In this document: in pieces, positions 19,099-27,481 of the stretch
Layout of the letters: every line of letters begins with the position of its first letter
How positions within the stretch are numbered: the stretch's first letter is position 1
IMG/VR virus record: IMGVR_UViG_3300028833_000094
Coordinates: 1 to 64,000 of that record
Reading direction: 5' to 3' (one strand)
Length of the DNA stretch: 64,000 nt
Source of the DNA: a virus
Lineage: Duplodnaviria > Caudoviricetes
The notes under the pieces: generated by a model
Told to the model about the DNA's origin: nothing
The model's input: only the letters and a program-made list of their open reading frames with translations
Databases searched by the model: none
Translations under genes and position numbers: made by a program

Positions 19099-19803
19099 TT
19101 ATACTTCTTGAAACCACTCTATGCCATAACCATTCTGACCAATCAGGATACTATTTATCTGATTCCATATATCAGAAGGCATGTTTGTCCTTGTCCTTGC
19201 ATACCATGAAGGATGCCTTATCCTAATGACATGATTGAACCTGGTGTTTATATAAGGCTCAAATGACTGTGCATCAGTTCCCATCAGGACATAGACAATA
19301 CCTGTGAGATACTTTGAGAGATTGGTGAGCAAAGTCTTAATGAAAGGTCTCCACATTAGCCTATGACTGCCTGGCTTGCCAACCTCACAGGAAAGTGCTG
19401 AATTTAATAACAGCACCCCCTGTACTTCCCACTTCTCCAAACTTGCGTCAAAGTTAATATTTCCATGTGGAAGGGTAGGGTTGATTACAGATTCCCTTAG
19501 GATTTCTAATGACGGAGAAAATAAATTCTCTGGAGTATCTGATGAATTGGCAAAGGCAAGACCTGTAGCTACAGGGATTCTTGATGGAGAACCATCAAGC
19601 ACTGTGGCTTTAAGATTATTATAAGGGTCTTGACCCAAGATGACTACTCGGAGACTATTGTAAGGACACAGGTGGAAGGCTTTAAAAATATTTTTGAGAT
19701 TAGGACAGATGACTGGATAGACTGCTAACTTCTTCAGGATTCTTTCTGCTTCTTTCAGGTCAATGACCTTTGACCATTCTCCAAAGTATTCCTCAATTGT
19801 CAT
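19099..19803 (-). CDS. ung: Uracil-DNA glycosylase family 1
   Basis: ILGQDPY, GLAF, SPSL, GVLLLN, HPS. Confidence 0.95.
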   Translation of the reverse strand: MTIEEYFGEWSKVIDLKEAERILKKLAVYPVICPNLKNIFKAFHLCPYNSLRVVILGQDPYNNLKATVLDGSPSRIPVATGLAFANSSDTPENLFSPSLEILRESVINPTLPHGNINFDASLEKWEVQGVLLLNSALSCEVGKPGSHRLMWRPFIKTLLTNLSKYLTGIVYVLMGTDAQSFEPYINTRFNHVIRIRHPSWYARTRTNMPSDIWNQINSILIGQNGYGIEWFQEV

Positions 19804-20531
19804 GGCTTAATCTCCTCTATATAGTCTCTGGCTATCTGAAGCAAATCATTGTCTGTAACAGATACAGAAGGATATTTTACCTGTTTCAGGATAAATGGAG
19901 ACACATCTATTTCAATCTTGATATTATAGCTGCCACTATATCTGATAACAGAATCAGTAATTTGGGGATTTACCCTTCTTATACTCAATATTTCCATTGG
20001 AAACTTCTTGGCAATAAATCTCTCCATAGGATTTGACTGAGCCTGAAAACAGTCAGGACTGATTCTTATCAGGGGTCTTTCAAAGAAATAATCATAAGTC
20101 CTATCTTCAGAAGTGCTTGGTCTTCTCAATATCTGCCAGGAGCATATCATAACAGGCTTCAGATTTTCATCAAAGACTGCCCCATGTGTACCATAATACT
20201 TAAAAGGAGGATCGCCTGGTATGCCCAATTCTATAAGATGTGTATCATTACATTCAACAAGAACATCCTTCATATACCTGTTCAGGGTAACATAGTTAGG
20301 CTTTGTTCCCATTGAATATAGAGGTGCTACAAGCATATCCATGTCAGGATGCTTTTCTATATTCTTACTGAAAGCATCTAAGGCAAATACTGGGAGTTCA
20401 AAGGTATCACCGATAAGAATCTCCAGATACTTAATGGAAGTAGTTTTGCTATTTCCGTTCCTATTATAATGCCTTCTGTATGTCCAATTATCATATATCC
20501 TGCTTATTACTGTACTATAATCTAAAGCCAT
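19800..20531 (-). CDS. Hypothetical protein coupled to the E1 gene
   Basis: 243 aa; start overlaps E1 stop, stop overlaps ung start. Confidence 0.75.
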   Translation of the reverse strand: MALDYSTVISRIYDNWTYRRHYNRNGNSKTTSIKYLEILIGDTFELPVFALDAFSKNIEKHPDMDMLVAPLYSMGTKPNYVTLNRYMKDVLVECNDTHLIELGIPGDPPFKYYGTHGAVFDENLKPVMICSWQILRRPSTSEDRTYDYFFERPLIRISPDCFQAQSNPMERFIAKKFPMEILSIRRVNPQITDSVIRYSGSYNIKIEIDVSPFILKQVKYPSVSVTDNDLLQIARDYIEEIKP

Positions 20532-21724
20532 CAGTACTCAGTTTTAAATATCATATTCTGTGCATCATACTCAGTAAAGAAGGGAAGGTCATAAGGAATC
20601 ACTGGATTTAACTGATTGGCTACAAAGTTTGTGAAGAGATTAGTCATCAATGAGCTAATCATACAAGCAAGATAAGTGGTTTGCTTCATGGAACATACAG
20701 TCTCATCAGCTTCATCATCTGAGAAGAGATAGTTATTGGAATACCTTGCCATATTAGCAGTATCATCACCTGTAATGCAGAAGATTTGCAATGTATCTAT
20801 TGAGAGTCTGCCGTCCAGGAAGAGACATTTCTTCTTCTCTTCTTCAGGCTTAGACTCTACATGAGCTAACCATTGCCTGTAGAAGGTTCCTCTTGCTTCC
20901 ATATTATCAAAGCCGCACATCATTATATCAGAAGCCTCACTATTAGCTGTGAATTTCTCTGGTACAGCCATTACATGCTCTGTAGTAGTAAAATTATAAA
21001 TCTTATTTGCTACTGCATTTACCTTGAATTCACCTACATCTGTATGAGCAAACAACTGACCTGACATATTAGCCCTTTCCACCTCATCATCATCATATAA
21101 GGTAATGGCATCAGGATGCATCCTTGCTATCTGGAAAGCCAAGTTACTACCAATGCCTCCCATTCCTGCTATGATGATACGCTTCCTTTGGATTTCATTA
21201 TACCATTCAGTACCAGAGAATCTGGAAGTAGCATCATTCATTAATAAGGTAGGAGAATTAGGCTGAATTAGGGGAGATTCCTGAGGTTGCTGTGCCACAG
21301 CAACAGACTCTACAGATTCTGTACCAGAGGGTCTTTCTTCTACTCTTACAAGATTAAGATGTTGTACAGGTTCTCCATTGATTGATGCCCTGAATTCTCT
21401 GCCTCCTTCTAAAAGAGAATCATCAAGATGAACTGTTAATCCTCTGACAGACTCTGGATTGAATTCCATTAGTTCTTCAGTATTCTCTTCTACTTCCTCC
21501 TCTCTCCCTTCTTCATCTTCATCATCCTCCTCTACAATCTCTGCTTCCTGAACTTCAGAGAAACCTAAATCAGAAAGAATATCATCAAAGTCATTCTCTG
21601 ACAGTTCCTGAGTAGAAGACTCTGTAGGCTCTGTGATAGGTTCTGTAGAGGGAAGATTCTCTGTGGCAGACTGTGGTTCATCATCAAAGCCTAAGGAATT
21701 GAGCCATTCATCAATGTTATTCAT
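20531..21724 (-). CDS. E1/ThiF-family adenylyltransferase with acidic N-terminal extension
   Basis: IAGMGGIGS, DDDEVERANMSGQ, G.FK, FDN..AR, DGR; candidate catalytic Cys in ETVCSMKQ. Confidence 0.92.
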   Translation of the reverse strand: MNNIDEWLNSLGFDDEPQSATENLPSTEPITEPTESSTQELSENDFDDILSDLGFSEVQEAEIVEEDDEDEEGREEEVEENTEELMEFNPESVRGLTVHLDDSLLEGGREFRASINGEPVQHLNLVRVEERPSGTESVESVAVAQQPQESPLIQPNSPTLLMNDATSRFSGTEWYNEIQRKRIIIAGMGGIGSNLAFQIARMHPDAITLYDDDEVERANMSGQLFAHTDVGEFKVNAVANKIYNFTTTEHVMAVPEKFTANSEASDIMMCGFDNMEARGTFYRQWLAHVESKPEEEKKKCLFLDGRLSIDTLQIFCITGDDTANMARYSNNYLFSDDEADETVCSMKQTTYLACMISSLMTNLFTNFVANQLNPVIPYDLPFFTEYDAQNMIFKTEY

Positions 21725-22958
21725 ACATATAACGGTTTAAAACTTCCTTATACTGCTCGATAAAAGGGTTCTCTGGATAGTTATAAAGCTGTCTGTACAT
21801 GGCTGCTGCTATCTTTCCAAGATAAAGGTCATAGTCATTATAGAGTTCTGCAGGAACTTCTAGATCATCATACCTGTCCAAGAGAAACTCTACAATAAAT
21901 TCCTTCCAGTTATCAAAGCTTATAGTTGCATTACCAAAGATTTCAGCATACTTCTTATTCATGTGACGGACAATCCATTGCTTAAGGTCAATATCCTTAT
22001 TGACAATCAAAGAACAGGTAACCATCTGACAAACCAAATGATGGATAAGGTCAGGGTCTGGTTCCCAATCTTCGGCAGGAACTTCCAAATCCTTCATAGT
22101 GTCATCATCAAAGAGATTCTGTTCCTTACACTGTTCTTTAGGTAGAGGATAGAAAGCTTCATTGATTTCAGCAGACTTGTTCCTATTAGAATGAATCCAA
22201 CTGTAGAAGTCTTCATCTCTTTCCTCTTCTCTGTTGTTGTTACTGGTATTACTTAGGAACACCTGACTTTTTGTCTCAGATTTCTTAAGATTCTCAATCT
22301 CTTCAAATCTCTTGTCAAGGAAAGTAAATGGATTATCTGCTATCTCACGCTCTACATCAAGCATGAAATATTCAATAGAAGTAGTCTCTACCTCTTCCTC
22401 TCTCCCCACATCTCCTCCAGTCAATTGCTTGGGACCATCACCAAAGAATTCATAGGAAGAGCCCAAATATTCTGTGAAAACATTCTTCTTCTCCTGAACC
22501 TTACGAGTAATAGCAGCACAATATGTACCTGCATTATTGACGATGAGAGAGACAAAGCAATTAGTATCGTCTCCTTCACTCTGAAGAGTAGCAGTATCAG
22601 TACCTGAGAAGAAGCAGCTCATCTGATTGTGGGAATGGATGAGGCCCATATCACAGTTGAAGAGGTCAATATTATCTGCTATATAGCCTGCTATAGTCTC
22701 ATCATTGCGAAACTTAGTATAAGTAGCAGAACCTAAATCCATCGGATAGATATCCTCACAATGGATTTCAAGATTGTTGTCTTCAAAATTGCCCGTATGA
22801 GTATAAAATAAGATTCCTGACCATTCAAGTGTGGGAAACTTATTGCAGAGATACCTGATTTTCTCTTCTACCTTCTTAGGTACAAAGAGCTTATAGGTAG
22901 CAGACTGTTTGATGAGTGGAGGCAGTGGTGCTGCCTTGCTGGGAATTATTGTGTCCAT
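21717..22958 (-). CDS. JAB/JAMM (MPN+) metallopeptidase
   Basis: EWSG...IHSHNQMSCFFSGTD matches E-xn-HxH-x7-S-x2-D. Confidence 0.9.
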   Translation of the reverse strand: MDTIIPSKAAPLPPLIKQSATYKLFVPKKVEEKIRYLCNKFPTLEWSGILFYTHTGNFEDNNLEIHCEDIYPMDLGSATYTKFRNDETIAGYIADNIDLFNCDMGLIHSHNQMSCFFSGTDTATLQSEGDDTNCFVSLIVNNAGTYCAAITRKVQEKKNVFTEYLGSSYEFFGDGPKQLTGGDVGREEEVETTSIEYFMLDVEREIADNPFTFLDKRFEEIENLKKSETKSQVFLSNTSNNNREEERDEDFYSWIHSNRNKSAEINEAFYPLPKEQCKEQNLFDDDTMKDLEVPAEDWEPDPDLIHHLVCQMVTCSLIVNKDIDLKQWIVRHMNKKYAEIFGNATISFDNWKEFIVEFLLDRYDDLEVPAELYNDYDLYLGKIAAAMYRQLYNYPENPFIEQYKEVLNRYMYE

Positions 22959-24093
22959 TTTTATAATGATAATTTATTGTTTGTAAAATGTAATGAAGAA
23001 TACACATGGCTATCTTGTGACTGAGCAATACCACTAAAGCCTGTTCATCAGGGCCATTACCATGAGCAATATGGAGAGTTATAGCCCTTCCTTTGAAATC
23101 AAGTATGTATTGTCCTTCATACTGAGTATAGTTTACATGCTCATATCTACTAGACTTATAGAACTTGCCTTGTTTGGCTGTTACATTCAACAGTACTTCT
23201 GAATCATATAGTGCATTGACCATTTCAGGAGTACCATGCTGATTAACCCATTCTATGAAAGCATTGGAGATAGAGACCATATAGTCAAAATAAGGAAGGC
23301 CACATACAAATTCTCCTTTATTAAAACCAAAGGGTAATCTATTCAAAGAAATATAGTATTCAATAAAGTCTCCTAAGATATCTTCCAAGTCAAATCCATA
23401 ACTGCCCATCCATCTGGTCTCTCTATCCAAGTGGTTATAGGTTTCTTCTGAATACTTGCTGGTATATAGATATCCTGAAGAAGATATTTCTTCAAGCCTT
23501 ATATAAGGACCACCATTCAAAGACTCAACTGTGACATAGAGAGACAGTTCCTGACAGAAAAGCATCCATAGGGCTTCTTCTGAATTGTTCTTCAAGTCAA
23601 GGATAGTATGACGGATAGGGCCTCTTCCAAGACAAGGATTCTGAAAGCATACATTTCTCCAATCTAATCTTGGTACATGAGAATGGACATACCTTGTATT
23701 GAACTGCTGTTCAGAGAAGGTAGACCTTACTAGCTGGAATCCAGTATTCTCATAGGGAATATGTCCTTCCATAGTAATGACTATCTTTGCATAGAGGTCT
23801 TGAATATCCACAAATTTATCATGTTCATTGGTTACCCTTACATTAGGCCACCAAACAAATATAGTGGCTCTGACATCATTAAATCTTGACCTGAATCTTT
23901 CATAGTCACTATCACTAATTTCATATAAATCAGATTCAACCTTAAATCGTTCTAGTATCTCTGATAAATCTTCATTTGAAAGAAGCCCCTGTAAGTCTAC
24001 ATATCTTTCATCAAAGAAGTTCTTGAATACCTCATAGACATCATAGACAGGACTGAAGAGTTTCTGCCTTAATTCATTAATTGTATATTGCAT
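22891..24093 (-). CDS. Prokaryotic E2-like (UBC-fold) protein
   Basis: YVHSHV...NPCLGRGP resembles the E2 HP(N/H)...CL catalytic signature; lies between Ubl and JAB genes. Confidence 0.7.
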   Translation of the reverse strand: MQYTINELRQKLFSPVYDVYEVFKNFFDERYVDLQGLLSNEDLSEILERFKVESDLYEISDSDYERFRSRFNDVRATIFVWWPNVRVTNEHDKFVDIQDLYAKIVITMEGHIPYENTGFQLVRSTFSEQQFNTRYVHSHVPRLDWRNVCFQNPCLGRGPIRHTILDLKNNSEEALWMLFCQELSLYVTVESLNGGPYIRLEEISSSGYLYTSKYSEETYNHLDRETRWMGSYGFDLEDILGDFIEYYISLNRLPFGFNKGEFVCGLPYFDYMVSISNAFIEWVNQHGTPEMVNALYDSEVLLNVTAKQGKFYKSSRYEHVNYTQYEGQYILDFKGRAITLHIAHGNGPDEQALVVLLSHKIAMCILHYILQTINYHYKNGHNNSQQGSTTASTHQTVCYL

Positions 24094-24139
24094 ACTATTG
24101 GTTTTTAGTTGACATAGCATGTCAACATACTAAGTAAAA

Positions 24140-24178
24140 TAAAAAAGAGGGGAACAGAGTAAATACCCCATTCCCCCA
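24140..24178 (-). terminator. Possible intrinsic terminator/attenuator after the Ubl gene
   Basis: Minus strand GGGGAATGGGGTA...TACTCTGTTCCCC hairpin followed by T-run. Confidence 0.55.
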
Positions 24179-24198
24179 GACACAATCAATATTAACCC

Positions 24199-24855
24199 TT
24201 AAAGATTGGCAATCATGTCATCAATATCAGCATCAGAGATAGTAGGAGTAGCCTCATGGAGACGGTTAGCAAGCTCAGTGATAAGTTCATTGAGGACATA
24301 TACATCCTCAGTATAGAAAGAACCATCAGTCAGAAGAGCCTTGATGCCATCATAAATCCAGTTGACTGTATTAGCATGAGGAGCAGTCCTTACCTGAGGA
24401 ATACCAGTCTCCTCTTCAATATCTTCTTCATCATCCAATTCATGGGCAAAAGCCTCTGCTCTCTCAATCATGTAAGCAAGGTCAGCATTGCCTACCATAG
24501 TGTAGTTCTTGCCGAACTCTTCCTTGATGCTATCCTGGATGCCCAGTTCCTTAATCTTAGCATAGAGTTCCTTACGGTTCAAGAAGGCACCTGAAGCAAT
24601 TTGCTTGTTAGGATTAGTGAGCAGCATAACCAGGTTGTTGGTAGGCTGTCCCTTATACATTACATTCGTAGGAAGGAGAGAATCACGGGTAAGCAACTGA
24701 GTCTTAGAGATGCCTTCAGTAAAGGTCATGCCAGAGAAATCAATTCCCTGTTCAATCATCTGGTCCTGAAGTTCACCAAGAGTGGTGGCATTGGTTTCAA
24801 TACTGTAGCGACGCTGAGTTTTGTTGTTAGCAATAATAATGGTACGATTCTCCAT
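24199..24855 (-). CDS. Ubiquitin-like (beta-grasp) domain fused to a C-terminal helical/acidic domain
   Basis: Strand-strand-helix pattern RTIII..RYSIET.ATTLGELQ, final strand LVMLL then KQIASG (Gly89); first gene of the E2-JAB-E1 cluster. Confidence 0.7.
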   Translation of the reverse strand: MENRTIIIANNKTQRRYSIETNATTLGELQDQMIEQGIDFSGMTFTEGISKTQLLTRDSLLPTNVMYKGQPTNNLVMLLTNPNKQIASGAFLNRKELYAKIKELGIQDSIKEEFGKNYTMVGNADLAYMIERAEAFAHELDDEEDIEEETGIPQVRTAPHANTVNWIYDGIKALLTDGSFYTEDVYVLNELITELANRLHEATPTISDADIDDMIANL

Positions 24856-24875: not shown

Positions 24876-25883
24876 TTAATGAAATAAATTCTCTAATTGT
24901 TTGAAATCTTCTTTGTTTTTAAGGGACTTGAAATAGTCGGAAAAATCCTTCTTTCCCTTTAAGTCAGGCACAATATAAGGAAAGCCTGTTTGCCGAGAGA
25001 GTTTCTTGGCATCTTCAATACCTGGTGCATCCACATCATAGCAGATAAATATCTTCTTATATCTTCTCTTAAGTTCATTGACAGCAGTCTGACTGATGCC
25101 ATATCCTTCTCCCTGAGGAGCAATAGCAGGAATATGCAACTGACAAGAGATGCAAAGGGCATCCTTCAGACTACTGCAAATGATTAATCTATCACCATAT
25201 TCAGGAACCTTAGTCCATAAGGAGATAACTGATGAATCCATTTTCATACACCACTTATACTTCTTATTAAATGGCTGATAAATCTTGAGACTAAGGCTTC
25301 CATCCTTTCTTTCTGTAAAACAGTAGGCATGTTTATCTGCAGGGAAAATGTACTTATGGGATTTACCAGTTTCTTTATCCTTTTTAGTAATAATCTTATG
25401 AGAGATGGGATACACTTCAGCATATTTGAGCCATTGCTTCTCTATTCCATAAGAAGCCCAATATTCATAGTCATAATCTCTCCAAGGGCGGACAGCTACC
25501 TGAAGTTTGGTCAATTCAGAAGTTTCCTTACGTGTAAGAGTCTTAATCTGCTTATGCTTTACAGTGACATCAGAGCCTTCCTGCTTTTGCATGACCTCCA
25601 ATATCCTGTCAAATACCTGATGGAAGGTACAGTTCCATTTCTTACACAATAAATCCAACAGACTACCTTTGGTTTCACTCTCCCCAAAGTCCTTATATCG
25701 GATATGTTTATCTTTATCAAGATATATGCCAAAAGAAGGATTGCTGTCTCTCCTAAATGGAGAAGAGATTTTACACGGGATACTTGTTATCTCAGGAAAT
25801 ACTGCGGTAAGTATCTGGACTTCAGAATACTTCTCAAACAGTTCTGAGACTGTGATGCTGGATGATGTCTTGCCTACTATCAT
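24876..25883 (-). CDS. dnaG: DNA primase (crAss-type, TOPRIM)
   Basis: SPFRRDSNPSF..Y..KDFG, SSLKD, YDVDAPG, KDFSD. Confidence 0.88.
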   Translation of the reverse strand: MIVGKTSSSITVSELFEKYSEVQILTAVFPEITSIPCKISSPFRRDSNPSFGIYLDKDKHIRYKDFGESETKGSLLDLLCKKWNCTFHQVFDRILEVMQKQEGSDVTVKHKQIKTLTRKETSELTKLQVAVRPWRDYDYEYWASYGIEKQWLKYAEVYPISHKIITKKDKETGKSHKYIFPADKHAYCFTERKDGSLSLKIYQPFNKKYKWCMKMDSSVISLWTKVPEYGDRLIICSSLKDALCISCQLHIPAIAPQGEGYGISQTAVNELKRRYKKIFICYDVDAPGIEDAKKLSRQTGFPYIVPDLKGKKDFSDYFKSLKNKEDFKQLENLFH

Positions 25884-25924: not shown

Positions 25925-26908
25925 TTAATCCCAGGGCATTTCATTTGCTGCAAAGGGAAGTTCTTCCTGAGGTTTCTCCAGATTGGTAGGTTCTACAGAA
26001 TATTCCTGGAGTTCCTGTACACGATAGTCAATATTACTGTACAATCCACTCTGCTTAGCCCTTACAATATCACTCTCAAGCTTTGCAATAGCCTTGGCAT
26101 TAGGATTCTTATACAGAACAGTATCATAGCCAGTGCATACAGCCTGATACTGCTTACCTTCATTATTGGTACGGATACCATAGAGAAGAGTTACAGCAAG
26201 AGGCTTAATCTTCTTCTTGTTCTCAATCTCATTCCAGAGAACAGATACATCACCCTTGAAGAAGCTATCAAAATCACTCTTGTCAAGAGCCAGCATGTGG
26301 TTCTCATATACCAGTACATCATCCTTCTCAGCCTCTTCCTTGGTGAGTTCATTGATATGCTTCATCTTCTTCAGAAGGAAGGAACCATTGACATATTCAA
26401 AGGCATTAGGAATCAAGAGATACTTGCGGAGGAAATCAACCAGTTCAGGCTCACCCTTATAGGCAATGCGATACTGGGCAATCTTAGCATTACCACCAGA
26501 AGAAAGAGTAGGCTGCTTATGATTATTTGCATCCTCAGCATTCATCCAGAGAGAATTACCATAGGCATCAAGCACTCTTACCTTAGAGCCGTCAGCATTG
26601 GCATACTTCTCAGCCCTGATAGTAAAGGTAGCATGAGAAGTGATATCAATACCATTACAAGCTTCTGGAACAGTCTTTACAATAAAATCAAGACGGGCCC
26701 ACTTAACACCAGTCTGCTCATCAGTACCAAAATACTGTGGTTCATTTTGTACCTCACGGCCATAAATCTCTTCAAGCTGCTTCTTAGTAGGATTGAGGGC
26801 AATAATATCAGACTGGCCTAATCCAATGTAACGCTTGAACTCTGTAGTCTTAGTCTCCGCTGTCTTACCAATGGTAAGAAAACTAAAAGAATTAATTGTT
26901 TTGTCCAT
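25925..26908 (-). CDS. Single-stranded DNA-binding protein (crAss-type), putative
   Basis: YIGLG..IIALNPTK, RLDF; acidic aromatic tail ELPF...EMPWD; position between ATPase and primase. Confidence 0.65.
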   Translation of the reverse strand: MDKTINSFSFLTIGKTAETKTTEFKRYIGLGQSDIIALNPTKKQLEEIYGREVQNEPQYFGTDEQTGVKWARLDFIVKTVPEACNGIDITSHATFTIRAEKYANADGSKVRVLDAYGNSLWMNAEDANNHKQPTLSSGGNAKIAQYRIAYKGEPELVDFLRKYLLIPNAFEYVNGSFLLKKMKHINELTKEEAEKDDVLVYENHMLALDKSDFDSFFKGDVSVLWNEIENKKKIKPLAVTLLYGIRTNNEGKQYQAVCTGYDTVLYKNPNAKAIAKLESDIVRAKQSGLYSNIDYRVQELQEYSVEPTNLEKPQEELPFAANEMPWD

Positions 26909-26923
26909 TGTTGTTATACTTTA

Positions 26924-27481
26924 TTAATCATTAAAAAATGGCATTTCATCCTCTACAGAGACAGTCTCTTCAACCAGTTCCTCTGTATTCTCCACATCTG
27001 CATCAAAGTCAGAGCCTGGTACATCTTCTGTGGTAGGAGGCACAATAGTCTCTTCTTCATCAGGAAGAGTAATTACATACTGCTTAGTCTGCTCATCATA
27101 GGCTACAATGTCAGTAGGAAGATACTTAGTTACCACAATAGGCTTACCAGTCTTAGGATCAGTCTTTCCAGTAGGTTCCATTACCTTCTTCACAATGCTT
27201 GTGACATGTACACCCAGCATACTGACAATACCAGTCTCAAACAGTGCAATATCATTCTCCTTATTCTGCATCTGCAGTTCAAGGGAAGCACGTTTCTCTG
27301 CCAGTTCTAACTTAAGGTCTTCCTTCAACTTGGCCAATTTCTCTTCGGCCTTCTTCTTAAACTCTTCATCCAGGCCATCAATCTGAGCCTGAATCTTGTC
27401 TTTCTTACTGATAAGAGGTGCAATTGCCTTGGCAACACTCTTTGCCTGTTGAAATTCTGAATAAGAAATTCTTTTTTCCAT
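26924..27481 (-). CDS. Coiled-coil protein with acidic tail
   Basis: Heptad segment; C-terminal EDEMPFFND. Confidence 0.75.
   Translation of the reverse strand: MEKRISYSEFQQAKSVAKAIAPLISKKDKIQAQIDGLDEEFKKKAEEKLAKLKEDLKLELAEKRASLELQMQNKENDIALFETGIVSMLGVHVTSIVKKVMEPTGKTDPKTGKPIVVTKYLPTDIVAYDEQTKQYVITLPDEEETIVPPTTEDVPGSDFDADVENTEELVEETVSVEDEMPFFND

Follow-up and report, generated by a model that had tools for sequence, protein, structure and literature searches.

A phage-borne gene cassette related to prokaryotic ubiquitin-like conjugation systems in the replication module of crAss-like phages

Prokaryotic conjugation of ubiquitin-like proteins (Ubl) has been characterized only recently, as a bacterial anti-phage defence, and here we describe a gene cassette that carries the same four-part logic on the phage side. 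The cassette encodes a Ubl precursor, an E2-like protein, a JAB/JAMM metallopeptidase and an E1-like adenylating enzyme, and it is located in the IMG/VR virus record IMGVR_UViG_3300028833_000094. Positions 1 to 64,000 of this record constitute the window, i.e., the whole stretch of DNA that was analyzed, and the genome-wide family searches covered the complete 116-kb genome. The cassette is real and represents a phage-borne variant of the prokaryotic Ubl-conjugation systems, with parts that are partly named in GenBank; its distinguishing features are a virus-only E2 lineage, a Ubl precursor bearing a passenger domain and an E1 devoid of a canonical arginine.

Described ubiquitin-like systems and the phage locus

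The closest characterized analogue of the phage cassette is Bil, whose types I and II are bacterial anti-phage defence systems (PMC10557695); the same defence is the subject of Hor et al. 2024, as cited in PMC11601596. Bil consists of four separate proteins with roles equivalent to those of the phage proteins (BilA, Ubl; BilB, E2; BilC, JAB deubiquitinase; BilD, E1), it shares the cysteine chemistry of E1 and E2, and its Ubl shows a conserved glycine followed by extra residues that are trimmed by the JAB enzyme. The BilABCD gene order is the same as the phage order Ubl-E2-JAB-E1. In PADLOC searches the BilD model matched the phage E1 with an E-value of 3.2e-7, weaker than the E1-E2 models of the anti-phage signalling system based on cyclic oligonucleotides (CBASS), whereas BilA, BilB and BilC returned no match at E up to 1. 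Moreover, Bil is bacterial and directed at phages while the present cassette is phage-borne, the Bil E2 cysteine has its histidines downstream (CEHH) while the phage protein has them upstream (HSH), and the Bil E1 contains inactive and active adenylation domains with a CYS insertion while the phage E1 is a minimal ThiF-size core preceded by an acidic arm.

On plasmids and integrative and conjugative elements, the PRTRC (ParB-related, ThiF-related) cassette is consistent with type 6d among the operons described by Iyer, Burroughs and Aravind 2006 (PMC1779556). By Pfam, it is composed of Prok_Ub (protein C), alpha-hel2 (F), Prok-E2_D (B), DUF2016 plus Prok-JAB (A) and ThiF. To our knowledge, the cassette itself is functionally uncharacterized. 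It resembles the phage locus in lying on mobile elements close to replication and recombination genes (SNF2, SSB, UvrD, RdgC; a ParB gene also adjoins the cassette) and in its gene order, since the C-F-B-A-ThiF succession (Ubl, extra protein, E2, JAB, E1) parallels that of the phage. The plasmid PRTRC ThiF proteins were the longest and best cellular matches of the phage E1, a few residues extend beyond the PRTRC-C glycine in two of three sequences (in the third it is C-terminal), and a CxG motif surrounds the cysteine in both E2s. However, significant similarity among the cassette proteins was confined to E1. ParB_N, Prok_Ub and Prok-E2_D were absent from the phage genome, the Pfam scans gave no alpha-hel2 or DUF2016 match, and hhalign comparisons of the phage profiles with PRTRC B, C and F, using single and three-sequence alignments, were not significant for any pair, including the Ubl profile with PRTRC-C; the sole alignment reported between the E2-like protein and PRTRC-B (Prok-E2_D) pairs the two CxG cysteine motifs. 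Further differences concern the position of the histidine, which in the 6d E2s is downstream of the cysteine and in the phage protein upstream (HSH), the lack of a DUF2016 N-domain in the phage JAB, the 129-residue passenger of the phage Ubl, and a conserved arginine that is retained by PRTRC ThiF and replaced by glycine in the phage E1.

Type II CBASS provided the best PADLOC scores for both the phage E1 (E1-E2 models, E down to 8e-12) and the phage JAB (E 3.7e-4), and its Cap2 E2 domain (7to3_A, residues 7-153) and CdnG-E2 complex (8yjy_B) matched the E2-like model structurally. In CBASS, however, E2 and E1 are fused in Cap2, the JAB enzyme is Cap3 and the substrate is the C-terminus of the cGAS/DncV-like nucleotidyltransferase (CD-NTase) rather than a Ubl; no CD-NTase or effector was found in the phage cassette. 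The Bub system comprises a Ubl (BubA), an E2 (BubB) and E1 and JAB parts (BubCD), and chain 9eav_D occurred among the structural matches. Bub works via tyrosine and serine oxyesters, without catalytic cysteines (PMC11601596), whereas the phage E1 and E2-like proteins retain invariant cysteines; it also contains a JAB-E1 fusion and the serine protease BubE, both absent from the phage cassette.

The only phage Ubl-JAB pair described before is TAPI/TAPK of lambda. In lambda and T1, TAPI joins a Ubl to a C-terminal domain, TAPK joins JAB to NlpC/P60, and cleavage of TAPI by the neighbouring JAB has been predicted (PMC1779556). This pair shares with the cassette its phage origin and a Ubl that ends in a conserved glycine and is fused to a C-terminal domain, but it lacks E1 and E2 and belongs to a tail-morphogenesis module instead of a replication module. 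The archaeal SAMP/UbaA/JAMM1 system is similar in having an E1 of minimal ThiF size and in that, among solved structures, Pyrococcus furiosus JAMM1 comes closest to the phage JAB profile. The archaeal JAMM enzyme processes both Ubl fusions and conjugates. This system differs in having no E2, in the additional role of SAMPs in sulfur transfer and in being cellular, not viral. In the literature, no paper was found that links crAss-like phages to E1, JAB or Ubl conjugation or that describes the cassette.

The original prediction, made from the bare sequence, had placed four contiguous, co-oriented genes between a primase and a uracil-DNA glycosylase (UDG). The list of open reading frames (ORFs) bore this out, with four adjoining minus-strand ORFs at 24199-24855, 22891-24120, 21717-22958 and 20531-21724 encoding 218, 409, 413 and 397 amino acids (aa; Ubl, E2-like, JAB and E1, respectively), and both flanking genes were identified by Pfam or PHROG matches. 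Since the homologues of the 409-aa ORF begin at its Met10 (MQYT...), the real start of the E2-like gene is probably 24093. The features of the locus are as follows:

24199..24855, minus strand: Ubl precursor, 218 aa; beta-grasp model, conserved Gly89
24148..24177, minus strand: terminator-like hairpin between the Ubl and enzyme genes; 13 pairs, then CTTTTTTATT
22891..24093, minus strand: E2-like protein, 400 aa from Met10 of the 409-aa ORF; UBC/RWD-like model
21717..22958, minus strand: JAB/JAMM metallopeptidase, 413 aa; complete JAMM motif, profile matches
20531..21724, minus strand: E1-like adenylating enzyme, 397 aa; Pfam ThiF
19800..20531, minus strand: fifth co-conserved gene (X), 243 aa; conserved position
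24876-25883, flanking on the Ubl side: DnaG-type primase; PHROG 12622 (3e-42), Pfam Toprim_2
19099-19803, flanking on the fifth-gene side: UDG; Pfam UDG (1.3e-10)

Consecutive genes from E2 onwards overlap by 68 nt (E2/JAB), 8 nt (JAB/E1), 1 nt (E1/X) and 4 nt (X/UDG), so that the start of the fifth gene overlaps the E1 stop and its stop overlaps the UDG start. The cassette and the fifth gene are translationally coupled to UDG inside the core replication operon. A scan of the sequence showed that the Ubl gene is set apart from the enzyme genes by the 13-pair hairpin and T-run, and RNAfold predicted a hairpin in the Ubl-E2 spacer of all 12 loci folded (the window and 11 others). The spacer hairpins vary in sequence among loci, being G+C-rich in the crAss-like loci and A/T-rich in Flavobacterium phage Fpv3 (L014), and are followed in most loci by a T-run or a T-rich tail. 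Such a hairpin after the Ubl gene would yield the modifier in excess over the enzymes.

The four cassette proteins

All the motifs on which the original prediction was built (KQIASG, HSH/PCLG, JAMM, GxGxxG and VCSMKQ) were present and were mapped to coordinates. The Ubl precursor is organized into a beta-grasp domain (residues 1-89), a conserved small helical domain (about 92-140), an acidic linker that varies among homologues, and a helical domain at the C-terminus whose last residues are DIDDMIANL. Its AlphaFold2 (AF2) model, calculated from a 43-sequence alignment with a predicted local distance difference test (pLDDT) score of 79.8, displays a strand-strand-helix-strand order with further strands over residues 1-80; residues 85-90 are a disordered tail with pLDDT values under 50, and helical domains lie beyond. 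When the model was compared with the PDB by Foldseek, ubiquitin variants, UBX, ISG15 and the bacterial Ubl 8tyx_A were retrieved at E 6e-4 to 6e-3, with a probability of 1.00 and a target-normalised TM score of up to 0.74. KQIASG corresponds to residues 84-89 and the Gly89 codon to positions 24589-24591; this glycine is kept in 119 of 119 homologues (SG in 116, LG in 3), and distant lineages end the Ubl domain in GG at the same place (KSGG in Fpv3, KGG in locus L013). As modelled, the protein has a ubiquitin-type beta-grasp fold with a conserved glycine on a flexible tail, in line with the fold expected for the 24199..24855 product. At the family level, no Pfam match was obtained across 43 members and PADLOC and NCBIfam contained no relevant family for this Ubl or for its Fpv3 and L013 versions.

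The motif of the JAB protein, E..HxHx7Sx2D, is complete, with E45 encoded at 22824-22826, H108-S-H110 at 22629-22637, and S118 and D121 at 22596-22607. These residues do not vary among 12 diverse sequences, those of Fpv3 and L013 among them. A profile built from 12 homologues matched only JAMM isopeptidases in the PDB (E 0.004-0.04, motif aligned), namely P. furiosus JAMM1 as the best match, CSN5 and Rpn11-like chains. Motif and profile together confirmed the JAMM peptidase anticipated from the sequence. A conserved C-terminal domain follows the catalytic one.

The E1-like protein consists of an acidic N-terminal arm (residues 1-160) and a ThiF core (162-397), the latter matching Pfam ThiF (PF00899) over residues 171-283 with an E-value of 7.3e-18 and 65 bits against a cut-off of 28.1. 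PDB matches were PaaA, UBA5, MccB, TcdA and UBA1, with the peptide-modifying enzymes PaaA and MccB as the best for the core; NCBIfam returned ThiF family 2 and PRTRC_ThiF (6e-13), and BLASTP against a PRTRC ThiF gave 7e-15, in an alignment that pairs both the RF and the Cys-Ser motifs. In E. coli ThiF, the ligands of ATP/Mg2+ and of the substrate tail are Arg11, Ser66, Arg70, Gln71, Lys83, Asp127 and Arg132, among which Arg70 and Ser66 contact the ATP phosphates (PMC12596934). Five of these have equivalents in the phage enzyme, as Arg11 corresponds to R168, Gln71 to Q223, Lys83 to K234, Asp127 to D273 and Arg132 to R306; the other key elements are GMGGIGS (187-193), G222 and Cys344 (20693-20695) in VCSMKQ. 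The motifs are invariant in the 13 phage sequences aligned. Cys344, in the pattern C-[ST]-x-K-Q-T, is kept in every intact phage homologue and aligns with the Cys-Ser of PRTRC ThiF, and judging from the order of the motifs it would occupy the position of ThiF Cys184 and MoeB Cys187. On this sequence evidence the protein belongs to the ThiF/MoeB/UBA superfamily, and the ThiF/E1 assignment with its GxGxxG and cysteine was upheld.

Two acidic amphipathic motifs of the D-x-[WI]-L-x-x-L-G-F type, NIDEWLNSLGF and DFDDILSDLGF, were observed in the E1 arm (21560-21724) and resemble the DIDDMIANL terminus of the Ubl precursor (24199-24240). They recur in crAss-like loci, and the whole arm is absent in Fpv3, L013 and the bajarodcaudo virus. 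In L013 (7010-7855), the E1 frame stops just before the segment of the catalytic cysteine and resumes 33 nt later in a new ORF, which could reflect a sequencing error, a broken gene or recoding. A Bacillus plasmid ThiF, matched with good coverage, was rejected, being set in a peptide-modification context and not in a Ubl cassette.

Public records name the phage E1 "thiamine biosynthesis protein ThiF", the top NCBIfam rows belong to ThiF models (each with a score far short of the cut-off), and JAB, Ubl and E1 also occur together in sulfur-transfer operons (PMC1779556). These observations would fit a sulfur carrier of the ThiS/MoaD type, in which E1 makes a thiocarboxylate that serves to thio-modify tRNA, DNA or a cofactor, the role of JAB being limited to precursor trimming. 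We regard this explanation as very improbable: no ThiS-family, rhodanese or cysteine desulfurase gene was found anywhere in the 116-kb genome, and no thiamine or molybdopterin genes occur near the cassette in the ORF list of the window, as had been noted from the sequence at the outset. Furthermore, the modifier model resembles ubiquitin, ISG15 and UBX, the PDB matches listed include neither ThiS nor MoaD chains, and the cassette always contains an invariant Cys/His protein whose modelled fold is UBC-like.

This Cys/His protein is the E2-like one, which comprises a UBC/RWD-like N-terminal domain (about residues 11-215), an alpha/beta C-terminal domain (228-392) and a disordered tail. HSH146-148 is encoded at 23677-23685 and PC163LG contains Cys163 at 23632-23634. 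The AF2 model has a pLDDT of 85.5, above 90 across most of residues 11-200, and shows a helix (23-36), strands at 41-44, 85-97, 103-115 and 129-136, then HSH146-148, the Cys163 loop and helices at 168-178 and 182-195. The order of these elements in the model, an N-terminal helix, a four-stranded antiparallel meander and helices, is that of the UBC/E2 superfold; HSH146-148 and Cys163 fall between the last strand (134-136) and the long helix 168-178, and would occupy the region of the E2 active-site loop.

An exhaustive structure search with VIA-align against 48,161 chain representatives, in which the top 50 chains were read, returned E2, UEV or RWD chains in about 30 of the 50, and in about 36 of the 50 in a second look, with 110-137 residues aligned of E2s that are about 150 long. 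The matches included Ubc9, Ubc13, Ubc8, UBE2E1, E2S, the Cap2 E2 domain, FTS, FANCL, UEV domains of Tsg101 and VPS37A, the BRISC UEV subunit, RWD domains of GCN2 and RWDD, and kinetochore RWDs; the CBASS CdnG-E2 complex (in the second look) and the chain of the BubCD-BubB-BubA entry 9eav, mentioned above, belong to the same set. In a regular-expression census of 250 full-length homologues, CxG was found in at least 238 and the joint HSH..C motif in 232; six of the 18 sequences failing the joint pattern were inspected, and all six retain CxG.GP. Y-x-HSH, C-x-G, E199 and G203 form the sole invariant cluster in 12 very diverse members, and in the ESM Atlas 14% of the members of the neighbour cluster carry Prok-E2_D (score 0.88). 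On the basis of the model, we consider it highly probable that the N-terminal domain adopts a UBC fold, and catalytic E2 activity of the protein appears likely.

Three minor features of this protein were also recorded. The tail (22891-22941) is a disordered linker (residues 393-409, pLDDT below 50) with a conserved end peptide, TYQTVxY[LIV], whose aromatic-aliphatic C-terminus is kept in nearly all 250 homologues and resembles a partner-docking motif. PF25565, a plant ubiquitin-like domain family, gave sub-threshold matches in 23 of 42 members over residues 11-57 (23950-24093; best E 1.3e-4), and residues 5-84 weakly resemble EF-hand lobes in the structure searches.

Proposed conjugation pathway

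We consider it fairly probable that the cassette is a self-contained, phage-encoded pathway for protein conjugation of the Ubl, on the basis of the fold or family of each of the four proteins, the conservation of catalytic residues, the synteny and the operon structure. In the proposed scheme, the JAMM peptidase would cut after Gly89, thus freeing an 89-residue beta-grasp modifier and a 129-residue helical passenger; the E1-like enzyme would adenylate Gly89 and load the modifier on Cys344, from which it would pass to Cys163 of the UBC-like domain, beside HSH, and then be transferred to lysines of target proteins. Targets may be chosen by the C-terminal domain of the E2-like protein, by that of the JAB protein or by the fast-evolving fifth protein, and the same JAMM peptidase could remove the tag. 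The cassette would be expressed together with the replication genes, and its position in the replication module, together with the kinship of its E1 to plasmid PRTRC, suggests that the targets are replication proteins or that the pathway serves mobile-element-versus-host conflict. The original prediction had put forward replisome proteins, host defence proteins or competing phages as putative targets. In its broader form, the proposal is that virulent and integrating crAss-like phages, together with their relatives among the Flavobacterium phages, run their own complete Ubl pathway during infection, with a modifier released from a precursor, an E1 lacking the phosphate-binding arginine and a virus-only E2, and tag replication or host proteins with it; here we judge the chances to be evenly balanced.

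Several observations weigh against such a pathway. Every biochemical step, whether adenylation, thioester formation or conjugate formation, is one that we infer. In E1, Gly222 and Ala218 stand in place of ThiF Arg70 and Ser66 in 13 of 13 phage sequences (NM[SA]GQ), and these substitutions at the ATP-phosphate site mean that normal adenylation is not assured. The residues that follow Gly89 form a conserved folded domain, so that the Ubl protein could be an uncleaved Ubl-domain adaptor, and the JAB protein matched Pfam Prok-JAB with an E-value of 0.011 and 16 bits, under the cut-off of 25. An E3, a target or a ParB partner was not identified.

The remaining points on this side concern the E2-like protein. 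The original prediction had expected a UBC fold for 22891..24093, and this expectation was not refuted, with moderate support: the structure searches returned mostly E2, UEV and RWD chains, but their VIA Z scores, 3 to 6.3, lie in a range that the tool calls common for unrelated arrangements, Foldseek found nothing in the PDB at E 0.001 or better, and no sequence-level match to E2 was obtained with Pfam, PADLOC, NCBIfam, PDB profiles or hhalign against PRTRC-B. The near uniformity of the matches, and not the Z scores, was weighed in reading the modelled fold as E2-like. Pfam E2 families (UQ_con, Prok-E2_A to E) had no match at E up to 10 in 42 members, UQ_con like Prok-E2_D had none in the whole genome, and profiles A1 and A5 of the protein gave no hmmsearch match to PDB sequences at E up to 10. 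Likewise, PADLOC, NCBIfam and Pfam held no relevant family for the Fpv3 and L013 versions, the BFVD matches were uncharacterized phage proteins only, and no bridge to a named family emerged from the best 150 of 2,529 relatives in an exhaustive search with hidden Markov models (HMMs). Finally, H146, H148, C163 and E199 could equally form a metal site, which is the main alternative for this set of residues.

A rival explanation is a partial pathway, in which activity is limited to E1, JAB and Ubl, with the 400-aa protein serving as a non-catalytic RWD/UEV-type scaffold or as a metal-binding protein, and in which E1 passes the modifier directly to targets or performs other C-terminal chemistry, for instance amidation, cyclisation or nucleotidylation in the manner of MccB and PaaA. 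Among PDB sequences, these two enzymes match the E1 core best, the scores of RWD and UEV chains against the E2-like model equal those of true E2s, HxH...C...E is also a typical metal-ligand pattern, E2 family profiles do not match, and the E1 active site deviates by its Arg to Gly change. Nevertheless, we hold this explanation to be unlikely. In the model, Cys163 falls in a CxG loop that directly precedes the long helix coming first behind the beta-meander, an arrangement shared with E2s, and this cysteine was never replaced in the homologues examined; the sole hhalign alignment to PRTRC-B, albeit non-significant, pairs the cysteine motifs; the gene occupies the E2 slot of the PRTRC and Bil orders; and the ORF list contains no short precursor peptide near the cassette like those of ribosomally made peptides that undergo post-translational modification.

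Conservation of the cassette and introns at the HSH codons

The order primase-Ubl-E2-JAB-E1-X-UDG recurs in crAss001, in cr85_1 (Steigviridae), in the bajarodcaudo virus and in 11 IMG/VR loci, and this clustering of the cassette genes is far beyond chance. In crAss001 the cassette corresponds to gp79-gp75 within the primase-to-UDG interval gp80 to gp74. Flavobacterium phage Fpv3 shows the variant order primase-UDG-gp55-gp54-gp53-ThiF; all four of its proteins were linked to those of the window by pairwise BLASTP (E 1e-7, 8e-10, 2e-22 and 5e-36), and it keeps every catalytic motif of the cassette. Conservation across crAss-like phages, which the original prediction had put forward as a check, was thus found in Steigviridae and IMG/VR phages, with the catalytic residues kept. 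The same E1 was present in 75 records of the phage collection, 74 of them crAss-like or Fpv-type and with the cassette in the loci examined; the collection is without p-crAssphage (NC_024711, JQ995537), and the distribution leaves out Intestiviridae. The cassette phages span Bacteroides, Flavobacterium and rumen hosts.

The E2-like family comprises 2,529 clusters at 50% identity in the exhaustive HMM search. In 185,579 species genomes, it was found in only three contigs of metagenome bins, which look like phage contigs, making the family in effect virus-only. These contigs (L016, L017 and L018, one of them 111 kb) sit in Agathobacter, Bacilli and Waltera bins and probably derive from crAss-like phages, having been assigned to the wrong organism during binning.

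The original prediction had mentioned ThiF- and MPN-like genes annotated in crAss-like phages, and the crAss001 records carry the labels "metalloprotease domain" and "thiamine biosynthesis protein ThiF" and no other for the cassette; the bajarodcaudo virus record has "E1 enzyme family protein". The "thiamine biosynthesis" label hides the system in public records.

Some loci carry insertions in the cassette genes. In L008 (3801-4958), the first part of the E2-like gene ends in ...YMH and the second begins with SH...PCLG, and the two are separated by a group I intron and a LAGLIDADG gene; this intron is the only copy that scores in Rfam (RF00028, 69.7 bits). The JAB gene of L005 (4077-6035) is interrupted behind ...LVH and continues as SHH, with two LAGLIDADG genes between, and that of L012 is interrupted at the same place. 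The 5' and 3' ends of the introns are homologous between the E2-like and JAB insertions, although the two genes are non-homologous, and the insertion point in both is CAT|TCNCAT, after the first His codon of HSH. Splicing would restore the YMH-SH and LVH-SHH motifs. As a rule, homing elements insert where the DNA of retained genes is most constrained. The intron at the HSH codons of both genes therefore suggests that both HSH sites are critical and that both genes are functional.

The fifth gene also has a conserved place, its position being filled in crAss001 (gp75), cr85_1, the bajarodcaudo virus and eight IMG/VR loci. Its product is fast-evolving, with Y112, G117 and P221 as the only invariant residues, and it gave no match in Pfam, PHROG, PADLOC, NCBIfam or the PDB and no usable match in the Atlas.

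A fast-evolving gene of this kind is typical of conflict, and bacterial E1/E2/JAB/Ubl systems are anti-phage (PMC10557695, PMC11601596), with the phage E1 matching the PADLOC CBASS E1-E2 and BilD models. The phage might then have copied parts of host Ubl immunity (Bil, type II CBASS, Bub) in order to undo or swamp it, JAB stripping host tags from phage proteins or CD-NTases, and Ubl, E1 and E2 acting as decoys or re-targeting defence proteins. This counter-defence, which overlaps with the conjugation pathway proposed above, seems to us quite unlikely as an explanation of the cassette. A deconjugating peptidase alone would be enough for reversal, yet the full intact set is kept over long evolutionary distances; the core proteins are highly conserved, which is atypical for arms-race genes; and the cassette lies in the core replication operon, translationally coupled to UDG.

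If the proposed conjugation pathway is correct, the cassette would give bacterial viruses their first demonstrated system of protein tagging and the Bil, Bub and CBASS defences a viral counterpart. It is carried in the core replication operon by a large group of Bacteroidota phages that has cultured, tractable members (crAss001, DAC15, FpV-type). Real conjugation would make it a testable question which proteins the phage tags during infection. It would also open to mechanistic study a new E2 lineage and a minimal E1 whose active site is unusual, and would tie phages to the PRTRC cassettes of plasmids.

Finally, in the adjoining part of the replication module, the minus-strand products of 25925-26908 and 26924-27481 were observed to end in acidic-aromatic tails, ...EELPFAANEMPWD and ...EDEMPFFND, respectively, which recall the C-terminal tips of single-stranded-DNA-binding proteins.

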